DNA of 64,000 nucleotides from Thalassolituus sp. UBA674 (GTDB lineage Bacteria; Pseudomonadota; Gammaproteobacteria; Pseudomonadales; Oceanobacteraceae), in NCBI GenBank assembly GCA_002298335.1, contig DBNK01000033.1, forward strand, positions 7,828-71,827. Direction: 5' to 3'. A program made the translations under genes and the position numbers. Position 1 is the first letter of the stretch. Every line of letters begins with the position of its first letter. The notes below the pieces were generated by a model. It was not told the DNA's origin and did no database searches. It saw only the letters and a program-made list of their open reading frames with translations. Shown here piece by piece: positions 4,054 through 11,588 of the stretch.

Positions 4054-4716
4054 TTAACCTCTGGCTTTAAGCTGGCTGACCTGCTCTTCCAGCTCCGCGA
4101 TGCGCTGATCGCGCCCGGCCAGCAATGCTTCTGCCTGCTCCGGATCAAGCCATTGCGGGATATGCTGGGGGCAGTTCCTGTCCCAGGCGTCGACCCTGAA
4201 GATAACAACCTGCTCTCCCCGTGCCGGATATTCTCCCTGTGCGGACATCAGTGCGGCCAACAGGTCCGGCTGGTCCTCAATGACCTCCGCCTGCCCCCAG
4301 AGCTTGAAGCGGATTTTGCTGTAATAATCCATCAGGAAGATAAACGCCCGGGGGTTATCCGCCAGATTACCCTGGCTGATGTACTGGCGGTTTCCGCGGA
4401 AGTCAGCGAAGACCAGAGTCCGCTTATCGATTACTTTCAGGAACCCCGGTGGCCCTCCGCGGTGCTGAATATACGGCTGACCATCTGCATTTGCCGTTGC
4501 CAGATAAAAACTCCTCTGCCGGGCCACAAAGGCTGCCAGCTCAGAAGAGATATCCGTTTGCCAGCCGCCCTGCTGTTCCATACGGGCGTACAGCTGCCGT
4601 GATCCCTTACGGGCCTGAATGGCTTTAACGGTCTCTGTAAACGCAATGTCGCTGGCGTACTTCACTTTTATCGTCTCCCGGTCATAAGCCCAGGTCGCTG
4701 AGCCCGGGGTGGTCAT
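4054..4716 (-). CDS. Pyridoxamine 5'-phosphate oxidase-like FMN-binding protein
   Basis: The ORF is open from 4788; the start at M25 (4716) is preferred. PNPOx-like core [23 protein letters not shown]...[16 protein letters not shown]. The start is uncertain. Confidence 0.65.
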
Positions 4717-5146
4717 CCGGACGACGGCCCGCCGGCCAGAAGAACTTACGTTCGTCTTCGCGGATGGGGTGTTCATTGATGCTGGCAATACGGCGTTGCA
4801 TTAAACCTTGGTCGTCAAACTCCCAGTTTTCATTGCCGTAGGCGCGGAACCACTGCCCGGAATCATCGTGAAACTCATAAGCAAAGCGCACAGCAATGCG
4901 GTTTTCTGTGTATGCCCAGAGCTCTTTGATGAGACGGTAATCGAGTTCCCGGGTCCACTTGCGTGTCAGCAGCTGCACAATCTCTTCCCGTCCGGAGACG
5001 AACTCTGCGCGGTTACGCCAGTGACAGTCCGGGGTGTAAGCGAGAGAGACCTTCTGCGGGTCGCGGCTGTTCCAGCCATCTTCCGCCAGACGGATTTTTT
5101 CGCTCGCGGTCTCCCGGGAAAAAGGCGGTAAAGGGGGTCTTGGCAT
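4682..5146 (-). CDS. DUF1348 / SnoaL-like (NTF2 fold) protein
   Basis: 154 aa: [24 protein letters not shown]...[34 protein letters not shown], typical of DUF1348. Confidence 0.7.
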
Positions 5147-5211: not shown

Positions 5212-5760
5212 TCAGTCAACCAGAGTTTTTACACCCGGGAAATCGACGTCGGTTCCCAGTACATCATTCATGTAGTTGGTGAGTGTATTCAACGCAACCA
5301 GCCCAACAATCTCGACGATTTCGGCATTGCTGTAGCCAGCAGCCTGTACCCGGGCGACATCGGCATCAGACACCTTACCGCGCAGCTCAGTGATCCTGAC
5401 AGCGAATGCAACGGCAACGGCCGCTTTGTCATCCGCAGACGTACCACGGCGGTTTGCTTCGATCTCTTCAGCACTCAACTTCGCCAGATTCGTTGCCAGA
5501 TAGCTATGTGCGGCAAGGCAATAGCTACAGCCATTGAATTCAGAGACCGCCAGCGCAATGCGCTCACGGGTCTGGGCGCTCAGCGAACCCCCGCCCAGTG
5601 CACTGTTAAGGCCGAGATAGCCATCCAGAGCCTGCGGGCTGTTAGCAACAATCCGGAACAGGTTAGGAACACTGCCGAGCAGACTGTTGACGGCTTCAAG
5701 TGAGGAACGGGAAGCCTCCGGTGCGGCTTCAATGGACTCCGGTGTTGGGATGCGTGACAT
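5212..5760 (-). CDS. Carboxymuconolactone decarboxylase / AhpD-like peroxidase family protein
   Basis: 182 aa with an AhpD-type CxxC..H motif ([10 protein letters not shown]). Confidence 0.75.
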
Positions 5761-5859: not shown

Positions 5860-5890
5860 ATAAATACAACACCTGTACCGGGGGCCGGTG

Positions 5891-6826
5891 ATGGACAAAC
5901 TGGAAGCAATGCGGGTGTTCACCGCGGTGGCTGACTGTCAGAGCTTTGTCTCAGCCAGCCGGGAACTGGACCTTTCTGCCCCTGCGGTAACGCGCTCAAT
6001 CGCTCAGCTTGAGCAGTCACTCGGGGTAAAGCTCTTCAACCGGACAACCCGTCAGGTGCGCCTTACCGATGTCGGAATGCGCTACTACGAAGATGCCAGA
6101 CGCATACTGGAAGACGTTGAGCAGGCCGAGGCCACAGCGTCAGGCAGTTATGCCGAGCCCAAAGGCGTGCTGTCGCTGACCGCCCCAGTCCTGTTCGGAC
6201 AGAAATACATTGTCCCGGTGGTCGCGGAATACCTGCAGCAGAACCCCGCAGTCAGCGTTGACGCCATGTTTTACGACCGTGTCAGTAACATTCTGGATGA
6301 GGGTCTGGACGTGGCTATCCGCATCGGCCACCTCAAAGACTCCAGTTTCTACGCGACAGAGGTCGGAAGCATTCAGCGGGTGGTGTGTGCCTCGCCTGAG
6401 TATCTGAAAAAACACGGAACGCCACAGCAGCCATCGGACCTGACCGGGCACGAAATTATTCACGCCCTGACGGTCGAGCCTTCAACAACCTGGCGTTTTG
6501 AGTCAACTCCCCAGGGCAAGGAATCTGTCAGGTTGTCCCCACGCCTGCGCTACAACCAGAACAGTGCTGCAATTGCTGCCGCCTGTATGGGAATGGGGAT
6601 CACACGTGTGATGTCTTATCAGGTTGCGGAAGAATTAAACCAGGGATCGCTGACGCGTATACTGCAGGACTTTGAAAGTGCACCGCTGCCGGTTCATATT
6701 GTGTATATGGAAGGCCGCCAGACCAACGCCAAAATACGTGCCTTTGTCGACCTGGCGGTTAAGCGCCTGAGAGAAAACCCTTACACAGGGTACAAGACAT
6801 CAGATGCGCTTACCGTGAGCGGATAA
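5891..6826 (+). CDS. LysR family transcriptional regulator
   Basis: N-terminal wHTH (FVSASRELDLSAPAVTRSIAQLEQSLGVKLFNR) plus a LysR substrate domain. ATG at 5891; an in-frame GTG at 5888 is also possible. Confidence 0.9.
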   Translation: MDKLEAMRVFTAVADCQSFVSASRELDLSAPAVTRSIAQLEQSLGVKLFNRTTRQVRLTDVGMRYYEDARRILEDVEQAEATASGSYAEPKGVLSLTAPVLFGQKYIVPVVAEYLQQNPAVSVDAMFYDRVSNILDEGLDVAIRIGHLKDSSFYATEVGSIQRVVCASPEYLKKHGTPQQPSDLTGHEIIHALTVEPSTTWRFESTPQGKESVRLSPRLRYNQNSAAIAAACMGMGITRVMSYQVAEELNQGSLTRILQDFESAPLPVHIVYMEGRQTNAKIRAFVDLAVKRLRENPYTGYKTSDALTVSG

Positions 6827-6927: not shown

Positions 6928-7389
6928 TTAAATCTGCCTTTTAAATCTGTTTTTTAACCAGCCATCAAACGACAGTTTACCCGGCCCCCAGATCAGCAAC
7001 TGAGCCAGGAGAACACCCCAGAGAACATGTTGCATCAGGGCTGCCGGTGCAATTTCTGCAAGACTGACCACCGCAACTATATTGACAATACTCAGACCCA
7101 GTGCTCCCACCCGACCGGCCAGGCCGAGTACCAGCAGTACCGGCAACAGGATCTCTCCGGATGTTGCCAGCCAGGCAGCCAACTCGAAAGGCAGCAAAGG
7201 GACTGAGTACTCCTCTTCAAATAAAAACAGCGTGGTATCCCAATCTGAGAGTTTAGTCAGACCCGATGCAAAGAACACCCTGGCAAGGTACAGACGTGCG
7301 GCCAGCAGTGCTGCAGGTTGTAAGTAGTCCAGCAGTCTGGCTGCCAGTCCATAAGACGTGGTAAGACGCCCTGATAATGTCGTTGTCAT
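6928..7389 (-). CDS. DoxX family membrane protein (last gene of the bufferin-like operon)
   Basis: 153 aa with four hydrophobic helices and FFASGLTKL... DoxX-like sequence. SD AGGAGA upstream. Confidence 0.75.
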   Translation of the reverse strand: MTTTLSGRLTTSYGLAARLLDYLQPAALLAARLYLARVFFASGLTKLSDWDTTLFLFEEEYSVPLLPFELAAWLATSGEILLPVLLVLGLAGRVGALGLSIVNIVAVVSLAEIAPAALMQHVLWGVLLAQLLIWGPGKLSFDGWLKNRFKRQI

Positions 7390-7419
7390 AATAAAAAATC
7401 TCCTGTTAAACCTACTGAA

Positions 7420-8181
7420 TCAGGCTGTCAGATCAGCCGTTGTCACGGCGCTGACAATATTCATAAAGACTGCTTCAGGCAGCCAGTTCTCAAAATTAAA
7501 ATCCGTGTTCTGCATTTCATCCAGTGCGTCTGACAGCCGCATACCCTGCTGTAGAAAAGCGAGCCAGCGCTGTTCGTCCGCAGGAATTTCCCGCACCTGA
7601 ACACGGTGGTTTTTCCGGTATACAAGCGCACCCTGCGTAGCGGTATTCCCTGTTTTTTTGCGGATGCGTCTGATCCGTTCTTCAGTCAACTGATCGCTGT
7701 CATGATGAGCCAGCCAGATATCTGCAAGCGGATAATCTGACGTCACAATCAGAAAGCATTCACTCAATTTCAGCACGACTGAATCAGCAGTCTCTGTTCC
7801 CAGTAATTGCAGACTGTCAAAATCAGTTTCACAATCCGCAGCCCGGCTCAGCTTATGGCAGGCGTAATCCAGTTGTGCGCAGTCACTGACGTAAGGATAG
7901 GACTCCAGCTCAGGCAACTGGCCCAGTAACCGGCCAAAGTGCTCTCCCCAGACACCCCAGTCAGGGGCTGTTGGCGGGAACTCTGACAGCATCTGCTGCG
8001 CTGCATGGCGGAACAGTGACTCACCGATTAACTGCTCTACAGTGGGAAATGTGACCGACAATGCCCGGCAGGCACTGGCGACCAGATTCCGCCGGTAGAT
8101 GGCGAGTCCACGGGGGTCAAAATTACCCGGATTATCGTGACTGAAAATTGAGCGGATCAGCCGTTGCTGTTCAGTGTCCAT
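7420..8181 (-). CDS. bufC: DUF2063 domain protein (partner of the DUF692/MNIO enzyme)
   Basis: MDTEQQRLIRSIF...GLAIYRRNLVASACRALSVTFP matches the DUF2063 N-terminal domain. An alternative start lies at 8202. The gene overlaps the 3' end of the DUF692 gene. Confidence 0.75.
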   Translation of the reverse strand: MDTEQQRLIRSIFSHDNPGNFDPRGLAIYRRNLVASACRALSVTFPTVEQLIGESLFRHAAQQMLSEFPPTAPDWGVWGEHFGRLLGQLPELESYPYVSDCAQLDYACHKLSRAADCETDFDSLQLLGTETADSVVLKLSECFLIVTSDYPLADIWLAHHDSDQLTEERIRRIRKKTGNTATQGALVYRKNHRVQVREIPADEQRWLAFLQQGMRLSDALDEMQNTDFNFENWLPEAVFMNIVSAVTTADLTA

Positions 8182-9064
8182 ACGGGAGAACCTCCTCGGC
8201 AATCTTCCTGGCCTTTTCTGCCTCAGCCGTCAGAACCTGCCAGTCCGGTAAGTCGTTATCCCACTCAATCAGCGTCGGAACAGGCCCGAAACGCTCAAGA
8301 GCAAAGGCATACAGCCACCAGACCTCATCCGCCACCGGACGGGCGTGATCATCAATCATCAACTCGCCAGCGGCCACCGGGCTGCAGCCAGCCAGATGCA
8401 GTTCGCCAACCGCTTCTGCCGGAATACTTTCCAGCCAACGCCGGACATAGCGTTCAACGTTTTCAACACCCTGATTTTTTGCATTCACATACAGGTTGTT
8501 TAAATCGACCAATAAACCACAACCGGTTTCCTGAGTCAGGGCCGTCAGAAACTCCGTCTCACTCATTTCCGAGCCCGGAAGAGTGAGATATGCCGACAGG
8601 TTTTCAAGTAACAGGCGACGCCCAAGAACCTTCTGAACATGGTCAATATTGGCAACCATCCGGAACAGATTTTCCCGGTCAAAAACAACCGGCAGAAGAT
8701 CTCCCGAATGAACAATATGGCCCAGCCATTCCGCCCGGGAAAACGCTACATGATCGGAAATCAGGCACGGCTCAACATCCTCAGCCAGTCGCTTTAATTC
8801 CGGCATATAGCTATCCGGAATCGCACTTTCTGACCCCAGCCCCATGGCTGTGGAATGCAGGCTGACCGGATAATACTGCGCAACCTCCAGCAGGAAGGCC
8901 CGCGCAGCCCCGCCCTTGCCGAAAAAATTCTCCGAATGTACTTCAACAAAATCGAGAGGAGCCGGAGCCGTCAATACATCCCTGAAGTGGGCATGTCTCA
9001 GGCCCACTCCAATGGCTGTGCCTTTTCGGGGTTTCTCTTTACCGACTTTTAAGGCTTCCGACAT
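8171..9064 (-). CDS. bufB: DUF692 / MNIO (multinuclear non-heme iron oxidative) enzyme
   Basis: GVGLRHAHFRDVL...DFVEVHSENFF...SLHSTAMGLGS... TIM-barrel DUF692 sequence. The start is set at 9064 because AGGAGG lies 6 nt upstream; the ORF is open to 9088. Confidence 0.85.
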   Translation of the reverse strand: MSEALKVGKEKPRKGTAIGVGLRHAHFRDVLTAPAPLDFVEVHSENFFGKGGAARAFLLEVAQYYPVSLHSTAMGLGSESAIPDSYMPELKRLAEDVEPCLISDHVAFSRAEWLGHIVHSGDLLPVVFDRENLFRMVANIDHVQKVLGRRLLLENLSAYLTLPGSEMSETEFLTALTQETGCGLLVDLNNLYVNAKNQGVENVERYVRRWLESIPAEAVGELHLAGCSPVAAGELMIDDHARPVADEVWWLYAFALERFGPVPTLIEWDNDLPDWQVLTAEAEKARKIAEEVLPYGH

Positions 9065-9094
9065 ATCCGGCTCCTCCTGTTGCTGCATACGGAA

Positions 9095-9385
9095 TCAGGA
9101 ACGGGCCTGAGCCTGTGCTTCCTGATACTTTTTCTTCGCATCGGCTTTCAGCAGACCACCGAGATCCACACAGGTCCTTTCTGCCACCAGCTTCCACTCA
9201 CCGGGGTCATTCGCGACGGTTGACTGCCCCGCGCAGGAATGCGTACCAGCAAGGTTGGCGCAGTCATTCTGGGCAACTCCGGCAATGCCGTAGCACTTTT
9301 CCTTACCACCCGCATGAGCGGTCGAAACCACCCCGGATGCCATGACAGCAGCCAATGCAGCACTCATTATCAATTGCTTATTCAT
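9095..9385 (-). CDS. bufA: DUF2282 secreted Cys-rich peptide (bufferin-type RiPP precursor)
   Basis: 96 aa. Sec signal peptide MNKQLIMSAALAAVMASGVVSTAHA, then EKCYGIAGVAQNDCANLAGTHSCAGQS...RTC (4 Cys). SD GAGGAA precedes the ATG at 9385. Confidence 0.8.
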   Translation of the reverse strand: MNKQLIMSAALAAVMASGVVSTAHAGGKEKCYGIAGVAQNDCANLAGTHSCAGQSTVANDPGEWKLVAERTCVDLGGLLKADAKKKYQEAQAQARS

Positions 9386-9707
9386 AACGTTTATTCCTCG
9401 ATTGATTAATCCAGTCTGATACCATCTGCGGTGGTGCTGAGCCGACTTTTCTGTCAACCAGATTTCCTTTGTTAAACAGTAATAACGCCGGAACACCCCG
9501 CAGACTGTAATGCGCAGCCAGCGCCGGAAACTGGTCAACATCTGCTTTGATAACCGTCACACTTTCTGCGGACGCAGCTGCAACCTCCTCCATCACCGGC
9601 CCCATGATTTTGCAGGGACCACACCAGGCGGCGGTGAAGTAGATCAGGACCCAATCTTTTTCCTGCACGACCCGGGTGAAATTATCCTCGGCTGAAAGTT
9701 GTCTCAT
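9378..9707 (-). CDS. Thioredoxin (cytoplasmic, WCGPC)
   Basis: 109 aa with a WCGPCK active site and no signal peptide. SD AAGGAGG. Its stop overlaps the bufA start by 8 nt. Confidence 0.9.
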   Translation of the reverse strand: MRQLSAEDNFTRVVQEKDWVLIYFTAAWCGPCKIMGPVMEEVAAASAESVTVIKADVDQFPALAAHYSLRGVPALLLFNKGNLVDRKVGSAPPQMVSDWINQSRNKRYE

Positions 9708-9745
9708 TGTTTACCTCCTTCATTGTCTGGCTGCGCTGGCCGGTA

Positions 9746-10225
9746 TTATTCAGCGTTCAGTTCAGCCACAGTTTTATGACGGATTTCCGGCCAGGTTTCT
9801 TCCGCGGTATCAATGTTGCCCGGAACGTCACTCAGCCACTTTTTCTGTACCGCGTGATTCAGGTTCAGGTACAATTTTTGGTCAACGATGCGCCAGGCTG
9901 TCGGATCCGCATCCAGTTTTTTCTCCAGGGCAACACCCATGGCGCAGAAGCCACCGTACTGAGGTGCGTATTTTTCCGGGTAGGCACGGAAGCGGTCACG
10001 GTTATCTGCGCTGGAGAAGTGATAAATCGCATCCTGATACGATGCGGTGTACTCAGCACTGCCCTGCACCGGCTTACCCTGAGTGAAATAGGCGACGGCG
10101 TCATAGCCCTGAATCGCCAGGTCATTGGCATTGACGTTAACGTCGATGTCAGCGGCCCAGGTCAGGCTGGAAACAGACAGTACCGCTACGGCGGCAACAG
10201 ATTTAATGGCATTTACAAGTTTCAT
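9746..10225 (-). CDS. YHS domain-containing periplasmic protein
   Basis: Start at 10225 with SD GGAGA. Signal peptide MKLVNAIKSVAAVAVLSVSSLTWA. AIQGYDAVAYFT...YHFSSADNRDRF...PQYGGFCAMGVA is typical of the YHS family. Confidence 0.8.
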   Translation of the reverse strand: MKLVNAIKSVAAVAVLSVSSLTWAADIDVNVNANDLAIQGYDAVAYFTQGKPVQGSAEYTASYQDAIYHFSSADNRDRFRAYPEKYAPQYGGFCAMGVALEKKLDADPTAWRIVDQKLYLNLNHAVQKKWLSDVPGNIDTAEETWPEIRHKTVAELNAE

Positions 10226-10376
10226 AAAACGATCTCCGTTTTGCATAATTAAGGTCAGATTCTGGCGACAGGACATCCCCGCCGCTTGATGACCACTATA
10301 GGGAGACCTCCCCCGTCAAAGGGATCAGATCGTCCTGAACTTGAACCCGATCGTCCGGACAGGCGGATTTTTCTTT

Positions 10377-11210
10377 ATGGATACACTTGCAGATATTCTG
10401 AACCGCTTCTCGATTTCCGCGCGGGTCTTCTTCAGCGGCAATCTGTGCGGTATACAATCATTCGGGGATGGTGGCGGGACACAGGGACACCTGCATCTTC
10501 TCAAAGCAGGCCCCCTGGCCTTTATCAACAATGAAGGTCATAAAATAGTGCTGGACAGGCCTGCGGTGATATTTATTCCCAGAGCATTTCAGCACCGGAT
10601 TATTGCCAATGAATCCGTGGGTGCCGAATTAGTCTGTGCCAATATTTTTTACGAAGACGGGCAAAGCAACCCGCTCGCCGGCGCATTACCTAAACTGATT
10701 TATTTTGATCTGGAAGAATCCGGTCTTCTCGGGCAGGCCGCCAGCTGGTTATTTGAAGAAGCCTTTTCAGAACAATCCGGTCGGCAGCCTATGATTGACC
10801 GCCTGTGTGATATTTTTCTGATACAGATACTGCGTCACGTGCTGTCTGAAGGCATTGTTCAGCACGGTATGATTGCAGGCCTGTCACACCCGCAGATCGC
10901 CAAAGCCTTAACCGCCATCCACCAGCAGCCGGAGCTGCCCTGGACCCTGGAATCCCTCGCGGCCAAAGCCGCTATGTCCCGTACCAGATTTGCTGAGCAG
11001 TTCCGTGAGATTGTCGGGCAGACACCCGGTGACTACATTGCCGACTGGCGGGTTGCAGTCGCACAGGGGTTATTACGGAAAAACAAACCCGTGGGTTTAA
11101 TTGCCAATGAGGTGGGCTATGAGAATGGTTCCGCCCTGGCACGTGTATTCCGTAAACGCACCGGGTTGTCCCCGAAAGAATGGCTGGAAAAAGCGAAAAG
11201 TCAGATCTGA
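10377..11210 (+). CDS. AraC family transcriptional regulator (cupin-like N-terminus)
   Basis: MDTLADILNRFSISARVFFSGNLCG... is an AraC-type cupin N-terminus, with a C-terminal HTH (LESLAAKAAMSRTRFAEQFREIVGQTPGDY...). Divergent from the YHS-to-DoxX operon. Confidence 0.85.
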   Translation: MDTLADILNRFSISARVFFSGNLCGIQSFGDGGGTQGHLHLLKAGPLAFINNEGHKIVLDRPAVIFIPRAFQHRIIANESVGAELVCANIFYEDGQSNPLAGALPKLIYFDLEESGLLGQAASWLFEEAFSEQSGRQPMIDRLCDIFLIQILRHVLSEGIVQHGMIAGLSHPQIAKALTAIHQQPELPWTLESLAAKAAMSRTRFAEQFREIVGQTPGDYIADWRVAVAQGLLRKNKPVGLIANEVGYENGSALARVFRKRTGLSPKEWLEKAKSQI

Positions 11211-11270: not shown

Positions 11271-11588
11271 TTATTCTGCCTCGGCCGCCACCGTAACAAG
11301 ACAATAACGGAGCAGATCCAGCTGCTGCCGGACCTCCGGCGGGAAAGTCACACCCTGCAGGTTATCCAGCAGCATCTGCGGGGCATAGTCTGAAGAAGGC
11401 CCCTGCATCACAACCCGGTCAACGTAGCTCTGCTCGTCCATGTAAGGCATCACCAACCCGGCAATGTCCCGCCATTCTGCCGGTTCACACTCCTCAGCCG
11501 TTGCCATCGCACAGGCAAGACCCGCTGACAGCAGCAACGGACCTGTCCACAACCGGTATCCGGGCTTTTCCTCCACCGCATTCCGCAT
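11271..11588 (-). CDS. Hypothetical small protein with a possible signal peptide
   Basis: 105-aa ORF between the AraC gene and mutS. It has a hydrophobic N-terminus ([17 protein letters not shown]) and no recognisable family. Confidence 0.35.

Follow-up and report, generated by a model that had tools for sequence, protein, structure and literature searches.

Bufferins, also termed captophorins, are reported to be among the most populous classes of peptides that are made on ribosomes and modified after translation; a preprint puts the number of their clusters in RefSeq at more than 20,000. In Caulobacter vibrioides, BufB and BufC make 5-thiooxazoles of central cysteines of the precursor, and once exported by Sec the product buffers copper in the periplasm (PMC11626156; bioRxiv 10.1101/2025.11.18.689057). 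This conversion and the copper binding have been established for C. vibrioides Buf1 and no more than a few relatives, and DoxX, a frequent member of the core cluster, is dispensable in Caulobacter. In Haemophilus influenzae, an operon for a multinuclear non-haem iron oxidative enzyme (MNIO) and DoxX is induced by hypochlorous acid (HOCl) via RpoE2 (PMC7907618), and in Escherichia coli the regulator RclR carries a Cys21–Cys89 disulfide that activates it on exposure to HOCl or chloramine (PMC7464077). Here, we describe a bufABCD operon of Thalassolituus sp. UBA674 (assembly GCA_002298335.1), which lies in a stretch of 64,000 nucleotides of contig DBNK01000033.1 (positions 7,828 to 71,827) that is referred to below as the window. 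The operon is headed by genes for a secreted YHS protein and a thioredoxin and stands divergent from a gene for an RclR-like regulator. This extension is real and is conserved in a marine gammaproteobacterial clade.

An earlier note made from the sequence had described six packed minus-strand genes with gaps or overlaps of 8 to 38 nt, most of them with a clear Shine-Dalgarno sequence, and this layout was confirmed. The six open reading frames (ORFs) run head to tail from 10225 to 6928 (Table 1), their coordinates match base for base, and the junctions in operon order are +38, -8, +30, -11 and +30 nt. The stop codon of the thioredoxin gene overlaps the bufA start by 8 nt, as the note had pointed out, and the bufC start overlaps the bufB stop by 11 nt. 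A Shine-Dalgarno sequence of the GGAG/GGAGG type is found 5–10 nt 5' of five starts, and bufA has a weaker GAGGA. The 38-nt spacer between the YHS and thioredoxin genes holds a hairpin, which a scan reported on the plus strand; since no T-run follows it on the coding strand, it is not expected to act as an intrinsic terminator for the operon. Such a hairpin could set differing levels of the YHS protein and the products of the downstream genes. An identical locus is present on a TARA Oceans contig, where independent gene calls give products of 159, 109, 96, 297, 253 and 153 aa together with a regulator of 277 aa. The YHS protein is 100% identical to one from an Oceanospirillales metagenome-assembled genome (MAG) and is present on 91 contigs. 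The source is an abundant uncultured marine gammaproteobacterium in the TARA Oceans data. No second copy of any of the seven genes was found within the window.

The six family identities proposed earlier were checked with profile hidden Markov models, and all six Pfam assignments exceed the curated cutoffs. For the core, BufA matches DUF2282 (now BufA1, PF10048; 1.1e-19, 70.6 bits against a cutoff of 22.4), BufB matches MbnB_TglH_ChrH (MNIO/DUF692, PF05114; 1.3e-88, 297 bits, profile positions 2–262 of 263), BufC matches DUF2063 (HvfC_N, PF09836; 2.8e-16, 60 bits against 27.2) and BufD matches DoxX (PF07681; 3.2e-17, 63.4 bits against 23.6). At the stricter NCBIfam level, BufB falls just under the orthologue threshold of the "MNIO family bufferin maturase" model NF050167 (306.1 against 310), BufC does not reach that of HvfC (NF050145; 30 bits against 142), and BufD scores 60 bits against a cutoff of 80 for the HvfX family (NF050144). 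The nearest solved structure to BufB is the DUF692 protein 3BWW (7.8e-30), followed by TglH and MbnB, and motifs of the metal-site type (EVHSEN, SDH, LENLS, DLNNLY, LHLAG, IDDH and IEWD) can be read in its sequence; a sequence search of the PDB with BufC gave no match. BufA carries the cysteine pattern EKCYG..NDCA..HSCAG..RTC behind a Sec signal peptide, judged, like that of the YHS protein, by direct reading, in which a basic n-region precedes a hydrophobic core and a cleavage site of the AxA type (AHA|GG). Its core, KEKCYG..NDCANLAGTHSCAGQS..GEWK..GTC, is near-invariant in 39 gamma- and betaproteobacterial homologues. By every sequence test run, then, the four-gene core is an ordinary bufferin-1 ("captophorin") cluster, in agreement with the earlier identification of a bufferin signature. 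Two Psychromonas loci (L010, 5060-5967; L012, 5095-5969) have two tandem, near-identical bufA genes before bufB, and a Halioglobus locus (L085) has a 107-aa ORF between bufA and bufB (5970-6293) with no Pfam match. A homology of DoxX to E. coli RclC (DUF417) was considered and dropped (BLASTP E=15; hhalign probability 0.9%).

The earlier note had named a lack of co-conservation of the thioredoxin and YHS genes with the core as a ground for refutation, and the genomic neighbourhoods of relatives were therefore surveyed. From reference genomes, one per species, the 80 closest BufB loci were taken, and homologues of all window genes were mapped within 5 kb; the sample comprises 28 gammaproteobacterial and 52 betaproteobacterial loci and, on the gammaproteobacterial side, at least 10 named genera (among them Marinobacterium, Motiliproteus, Colwellia, Psychromonas, Endozoicomonas, Moritella, Shewanella, Marinobacter, Kangiella, Haliea and a Pseudomonas MAG). 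In a neighbour-joining tree of BufB, drawn without support values, the 28 gammaproteobacterial loci form one group apart from the betaproteobacterial loci, with Haliea as the earliest branch. A YHS gene lies directly upstream in 27 of these 28, a thioredoxin gene is found in 20 and a Cupin_6/AraC regulator gene in 25; none of the three was seen in any of the 52 betaproteobacterial loci, all of which have a divergent extracytoplasmic function (ECF) sigma factor gene instead. The sole gammaproteobacterial locus lacking the YHS gene, that of Motiliproteus, belongs to a genome that encodes a 77%-identical YHS protein elsewhere. Thus, the co-conservation of both proteins with the core is upheld, and the extension also includes the divergent regulator, which the earlier note had overlooked.

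The same neighbourhoods were viewed from the YHS side by looking up eight loci of YHS homologues. The YHS gene precedes buf genes in five of them (L084, L085, L088, L090 and L091), and one (L087), at a contig edge, is uninformative. In the remaining two, L086 and L089 (the latter from Agaribacter flavus), the divergent regulator and YHS genes stand alone with no buf genes within 5 kb, and both regulator cysteines are kept. Because the pair occurs without buf genes, the regulator and YHS genes form a separable two-gene module, likewise missing from the earlier account, and this pair looks like the ancestral unit. Two loci show rearranged or partial operons. In Marinobacterium (L001, 3050-7597), YHS, thioredoxin, BufA and DoxX genes are followed by an opposite-strand regulator gene and then by bufB and bufC, and in a metagenomic locus (L091, 5001-6857) the same four genes occur with no bufBC within 5 kb. 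The Halioglobus locus has neither the thioredoxin nor the AraC regulator gene; an opposite-strand TetR gene and a DUF1348 gene lie upstream instead.

The regulator combines a Cupin_6 domain (1.3e-23) with an HTH_18 domain (1.5e-19). Its best NCBIfam match is RclR (NF040475), at 101.4 bits against an equivalog cutoff of 400, and because the score is so far below that cutoff we call the protein RclR-like and not an RclR orthologue. An alignment of 26 sequences (the window protein, E. coli RclR of MG1655 and 24 clade members) has cysteine in both redox-switch columns of RclR in all 26, and the corresponding window residues are Cys24 and Cys87. Between the regulator and YHS genes lies a direct repeat, GGACGAT-N14-GGACGAT, with 21 bp from start to start, 20 nt from the regulator ATG and 28 nt upstream of a candidate -10 hexamer. 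The repeat has a single match in the whole window with both strands scanned. Its position is conserved in 14 of 22 related regulator–YHS intergenic regions, the rest having near-variants. Related loci totalling 1.9 Mb hold 36 matches, and 15 of these fall in such intergenic regions. A near-variant of it is also present in the stand-alone pair of L086, and in L089 there is a weak resemblance only.

A scan for consensus promoters and terminators yielded neither a sigma-70 consensus promoter for the operon nor a convincing terminator behind doxX; its counts do not stand out from those in shuffled sequence (2 found against 2.4 expected, and 7 against 3.7 ± 2.1). The candidate -10, TATAGT, was read directly, was not reported by the scan and has no usable -35 beside it. 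Hexamers resembling TATATT or TATAGT lie at an equal distance from the repeat in related loci. A TATAGT downstream of the repeat without a good -35 suggests the layout of an activator-dependent promoter. A promoter-like site, TTCATA-17-CATAAT (10221-10249, plus strand), faces the regulator gene and overlaps the first YHS codons. If this site is real, the regulator and operon promoters would stand back to back with a shared operator, which would suggest autoregulation.

The YHS protein is the first product of the operon. Its Pfam YHS match (1.4e-8, 35 bits against a cutoff of 30.3) spans residues 44–90, and it also matches the NCBIfam family "YHS domain-containing (seleno)protein" (NF041384; 162.4 bits against a cutoff of 70). 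Its N-terminus, like that of BufA, runs from a basic n-region through a hydrophobic core to an AxA-type cleavage site (TWA|AD), leaving 135 mature residues, in line with the signal peptide claimed for it earlier. The sole cysteine, Cys94, lies outside the Pfam match in the sequence GGFCAMG and coincides with the family motif G-x-[U/C], where U is selenocysteine, as G92-F93-C94. Homologues are numerous (about 2,500 close ones at 90% clustering). Alignments of 28 and of 33 sequences were made, the latter of homologues with identities of no less than 59%; each of these 33 has a signal peptide and, in GG[FY]CA[MF]G, one cysteine that is invariant, and no invariant histidine or methionine able to complete a metal site was found in that alignment. 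Interchange of cysteine and selenocysteine is a hallmark of redox-active sites. A list of prokaryotic selenoproteins includes NF041384 with the motif "GxU", in which selenocysteine takes exactly the position of Cys94 (PMC13188914); the Olavius delta-1 symbiont is where the family was first found, in 2007 (PMC1976440), and the Global Ocean Sampling survey recorded it too. That the sole cysteine sits at the selenocysteine position of these relatives argues for redox rather than metal chemistry, so that the protein is probably a periplasmic one-cysteine redox protein and not a copper chaperone. The earlier note had seen in the thioredoxin and YHS genes a redox and metal-handling extension; for the YHS protein the redox half of that view gains support, and one invariant cysteine with no histidine or methionine partners speaks against the metal-handling half.

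The genes next to YHS in some relatives fit the one-cysteine redox reading. In three Alteromonadales-type loci, a TlpA/AhpC-TSA/redoxin-type gene is found upstream of YHS, directly so in L084 and L088 and at a distance of about 1.2 kb in L009. Its forms are either signal-peptide-bearing or truncated, with a signal peptide read in L009 only, and it coexists with the cytoplasmic thioredoxin in two of the three. Such a TlpA-like redoxin could be a periplasmic redox partner of the YHS protein. In the Colwellia MAG (L003, 4802-5442), a TAG lies inside the YHS gene and the thioredoxin gene is fragmented. Selenocysteine at this stop was considered and rejected: the in-frame stop is a TAG at a tryptophan codon beside a fragmentary thioredoxin gene, and an assembly error or a pseudogene is indicated. 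A sequence search of the PDB with the YHS protein returned only weak matches to YHS repeats, from eukaryotic AK9/CFAP276.

The thioredoxin matches Pfam Thioredoxin (PF00085; 1.5e-23, 83 bits) and, on direct reading, begins with the fold itself and lacks a signal peptide, as the earlier note had it; on this basis the protein is predicted to be cytoplasmic. It stays below the cutoffs of the housekeeping models (TIGR01068, 92.1 against 96.8; TrxC, 77.5 against 125; TrxA, 73 against 138) and is about 31% identical to E. coli TrxA. By these scores, it is a divergent, operon-specific thioredoxin. Its gene occupies one of two slots in relatives: the gap between YHS and bufA in 15 loci, including the fragmentary Colwellia copy, and a place after doxX in 5, those of Marinobacter and Pseudomonas, where the active site is WCAPC. 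In a neighbour-joining tree without support values, the operon thioredoxins stand apart from a TrxA-like gene of the Marinobacter locus and from E. coli TrxA, and they share just 30–56% identity among themselves. The linkage either survived relocation or arose by repeated recruitment, and the tree fits either history; each would be good evidence of selection. As a background control, 80 generic metagenome thioredoxin loci (32–47% identity), which were gathered on a generic active-site pattern and represent ordinary thioredoxins, were inspected; none has YHS or Buf neighbours. On a low-coverage Shewanella contig (L008, 795-1176), a 380-nt gap with no intact ORF occupies the expected place of the thioredoxin gene. 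The thioredoxin genes of this contig and of the Colwellia MAG are either decaying or affected by assembly errors.

On balance, we consider it somewhat probable that the locus is a bufferin-1 operon fused behind a redox-stress module of RclR-like regulator and YHS protein, with a cytoplasmic thioredoxin of its own, and that it acts as follows. The gene identities and their packing, the co-conservation across genera, the regulator cysteines and the conserved repeat are observed directly; what induces the operon and what the thioredoxin and the YHS protein each do are inferred. Stress that oxidizes thiols, from reactive chlorine species or the like and perhaps made worse by copper, would oxidize Cys24 and Cys87 of the regulator, by analogy with the disulfide switch of RclR, and the oxidized regulator would activate the divergent promoter through the GGACGAT repeat. 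A single transcript would then yield the YHS protein, the thioredoxin, BufA, BufB, BufC and DoxX. In the cytoplasm, BufB and BufC would convert the two central cysteines of BufA to 5-thiooxazoles, and the product would be exported by Sec and buffer periplasmic copper; this chemistry, the export and the copper binding are carried over from relatives in the literature. The thioredoxin would keep the four BufA thiols reduced under the oxidizing conditions of induction and may help to keep the enzyme competent for turnover. In the periplasm, Cys94 of the YHS protein would carry out envelope thiol redox chemistry, most likely by protecting or repairing oxidizable thiols, including those of the thiooxazoles.

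Published work on maturation gives some background to the role of a reductant. In vitro, maturation of Buf1 used a high concentration of reductant (PMC11626156). Ascorbate raises MNIO turnover, the need of MNIOs for an external reductant is an open question, and peptides with 5-thiooxazoles aggregate, which the authors explain by disulfide formation by free thiols (bioRxiv 10.1101/2025.11.18.689057). A fuller joint reading would make the thioredoxin the in vivo reductant for the precursor thiols, and possibly for the MNIO iron site, and the YHS family a periplasmic oxidoreductase with one cysteine or one selenocysteine that keeps the thiooxazole thiols of bufferin reduced or detoxifies reactive chlorine species, with the seven genes as an RclR-type "copper plus oxidant" envelope defence module of marine Gammaproteobacteria. 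This combination is tentative and, with all its parts, unlikely.

Several points weigh against the mechanism that we favour. DoxX has no cysteine with which to pass electrons from the thioredoxin to the periplasm by thiol exchange, and this excludes a simple chain from the thioredoxin to the YHS protein of the DsbD-like thiol-relay kind. We infer co-transcription of the six genes from their spacing only. The regulator is not an RclR orthologue by its score, and its inducing signal could differ. The two clades have practically the same BufA core, and the added genes are thus not tied to a different precursor chemistry. The thioredoxin is not essential to the system, because it is absent from 8 of the 28 clade members, and the function of the YHS protein needs no bufferin, because regulator and YHS genes stand alone in two of the eight YHS-anchored loci. 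An AlphaFold2 model of the YHS protein, built on the 33-sequence alignment, is too poor to judge the cysteine site (mean pLDDT, the per-residue confidence measure, of 46.7).

Some of these points feed the strongest rival explanation, in which two independent systems share one promoter: the regulator and YHS protein, perhaps with the thioredoxin, would be an oxidant-defence unit, and buf genes captured downstream would be co-induced with no biochemical interplay. The stand-alone pairs of L086 and L089, both with intact regulator cysteines (the operator-like repeat is evident in L086 only), favour this explanation, the BufA core is the same as in operons lacking the added genes, and betaproteobacterial operons manage with bufABCD and an ECF sigma factor only. 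However, the thioredoxin gene is kept within the buf block at two positions, one of them including the 8-nt overlap with bufA, and the YHS–thioredoxin–BufA–DoxX arrangement persists where bufBC is displaced (L001) or absent nearby (L091). Since neither stand-alone locus has a thioredoxin gene, the thioredoxin tracks the buf genes rather than YHS, and its behaviour speaks against the two systems being fully independent. We regard this rival as possible, if on the unlikely side, and three others as less likely than it. One of these turns on the thioredoxin. OxyR with Grx1/TrxC is a precedent for negative feedback in which the thioredoxin would re-reduce the Cys24–Cys87 disulfide and shut the operon off after stress. 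All 20 thioredoxin loci in the genome set have the regulator within 5 kb, and the regulator has its conserved cysteine pair, yet L088 has the thioredoxin with no such regulator nearby, and neither sampled stand-alone pair has the thioredoxin. This regulatory role is quite doubtful as a replacement for the mechanism favoured here, with which it is compatible rather than exclusive of it.

The other two concern the YHS protein. It could be a periplasmic copper-binding protein or chaperone that passes copper to or from bufferin, since Pfam describes the YHS domain as presumably metal-binding and the gene heads an operon for a copper-binding peptide. Yet the protein has one conserved cysteine and no invariant histidine, the adjacent methionine is often phenylalanine, and, short of dimerization, one thiolate makes a poor site for Cu(I); in addition, cysteine/selenocysteine interchange is typical of redox catalysts, and the Pfam YHS match excludes the cysteine. 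A copper role of this kind is thus improbable. Still further down the scale, to the point of being hardly credible, is the view that the YHS protein is a second substrate of BufB and BufC and that its Cys94 (in GFCAMG) becomes a thiooxazole, as the NDCA and HSCAG cysteines of BufA would. It is secreted, encoded in the same operon and has alanine after the cysteine as at both central BufA sites, and tandem precursor genes are known in related clusters (L010 and L012; PMC12452194). But YHS homologues occur with no MNIO gene nearby, selenocysteine in some relatives would make no sense at a site meant for heterocyclization, and 135 mature residues with a conserved, fold-like pattern are unlike a precursor.

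Table 1. Features of the bufferin locus in the window and of comparable elements in related loci (codes beginning with L; their coordinates refer to those loci).
Feature	Position	Strand	Remarks
YHS	10225-9746	-	159 aa; first operon gene
Thioredoxin	9707-9378	-	109 aa; WCGPC at residues 28-32, Cys29/Cys32
BufA	9385-9095	-	96 aa; Cys 31, 42, 51, 72
BufB	9064-8171	-	297 aa
BufC	8181-7420	-	253 aa from ATG; 260 aa if read from a TTG at 8202
BufD/DoxX	7389-6928	-	153 aa; membrane protein, no Cys; last operon gene
Cupin_6 + AraC-HTH regulator, RclR-like	10377-11210	+	277 aa; divergent from the operon
Candidate operator GGACGAT-N14-GGACGAT	10356-10350 and 10335-10329	-	putative function
Candidate -10 TATAGT of operon promoter	10295-10300	-	direct reading; weak
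7-bp GC-rich hairpin	9727-9743		inside the 38-nt YHS–thioredoxin gene spacer
Redoxin-like gene near YHS	L009 3428-3940; L084 4412-4753; L088 4315-4884		thioredoxin fold
Stand-alone divergent regulator–YHS pair	L086 4034-5546; L089 4033-5480		both regulator Cys kept
DUF1348/LysR-type neighbours	window; L001, L010, L012, L022, L025, L027, L033, L048, L085		

Among other neighbours of the operon in the sampled loci, only a DUF1348 protein and LysR regulators recur; their distance and orientation vary, and they were not counted as parts of the system. A DUF1348 homologue lies a few kb from the operon in 8 of the 28 clade loci, and in Haliea and Halioglobus the DUF1348 gene is directly upstream of YHS on the same strand. 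The DUF1348 gene may belong to the same stress neighbourhood. In the window, the sequence downstream of doxX holds a convergent LysR regulator gene (5888-6826, plus strand) and minus-strand genes for a CMD/AhpD-like protein with CSYC (5212-5760) and a DUF1348/SnoaL-like protein (4682-5146). Between the regulator gene and mutS, an ORF of 105 aa (11271-11588, minus strand) with a hydrophobic N-terminus has no Pfam match and is also called on the TARA contig.

The clade gives genetic hints on the physiological trigger of bufferins, on the role of DoxX and on whether MNIOs need a cellular reductant. The usual ECF sigma factor gives way to a thiol-switch regulator, a private thioredoxin keeps its linkage although its position changes, and a secreted one-cysteine protein belongs to a family known since 2007, when it was found as a selenoprotein. 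The locus would tie copper buffering to reactive-chlorine or oxidant stress, as is the case for E. coli RclA and H. influenzae hvf.

The core of the locus is already known, and its extension is apparently undescribed. The earlier note had not recognized the thioredoxin and YHS genes as part of the canonical cluster, and the literature agrees: these two and the RclR-like regulator are not mentioned in the main text of the bufferin, MNIO landscape and captophorin papers, nor in the parts of the supplement text available for the latter two, and no paper that combines the bufferin, YHS, thioredoxin and RclR-like regulator families was found in the literature searched. The MNIO landscape paper states that further conserved genes occur "in extremely low proportions", and the intergenic rule that it used (at most 10 bp) would exclude the YHS gene (PMC12452194). 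The papers found on NF041384 assign no function to the family and mention neither an RclR-like regulator nor a linkage to bufferins; relative to that family, the window protein is the cysteine form and not the selenocysteine form.

In its core, the locus resembles buf1ABCD of C. vibrioides, gig of Cupriavidus and Legionella and the captophorin cluster MNIO-PME1, with the same four families in the same order, and as in other bufferin-1 clusters the precursor has a Sec signal peptide and four cysteines, with a BufA core near-identical to that of 38 homologues. Unlike the published bufferin-1 operons, which use an ECF sigma factor with the anti-sigma factor NrsF, it has an RclR-like AraC regulator and carries YHS and thioredoxin genes inside the predicted transcription unit. 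It is like the hvf/doxX (oxazolin) operon of H. influenzae in that the latter is a HOCl-induced MNIO–DUF2063–DoxX system with a secreted cysteine-rich precursor (PMC7907618), and this induction is a precedent for coupling such peptides to reactive-chlorine stress, which tempers the surprise. The precursors differ, with EGKCG repeats in H. influenzae hvf (RpoE2) and the Neisseria SigE regulon and DUF2282 here; the hvf regulator is an ECF sigma factor, and YHS and thioredoxin genes are not described in the hvf operon. The layout of control resembles that of rclR/rclABC of E. coli. There too, a Cupin_6–AraC activator with both redox-switch cysteines is encoded divergently from its target operon, which specifies a cytoplasmic reductase of the thiol/disulfide type, a small periplasmic protein and an inner-membrane protein. 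The target proteins are not homologous, since the thioredoxin is not RclA and neither the YHS protein nor BufA is RclB, but the two systems share a link to copper: RclA is a Cu(II) reductase and ties HOCl to copper in E. coli.

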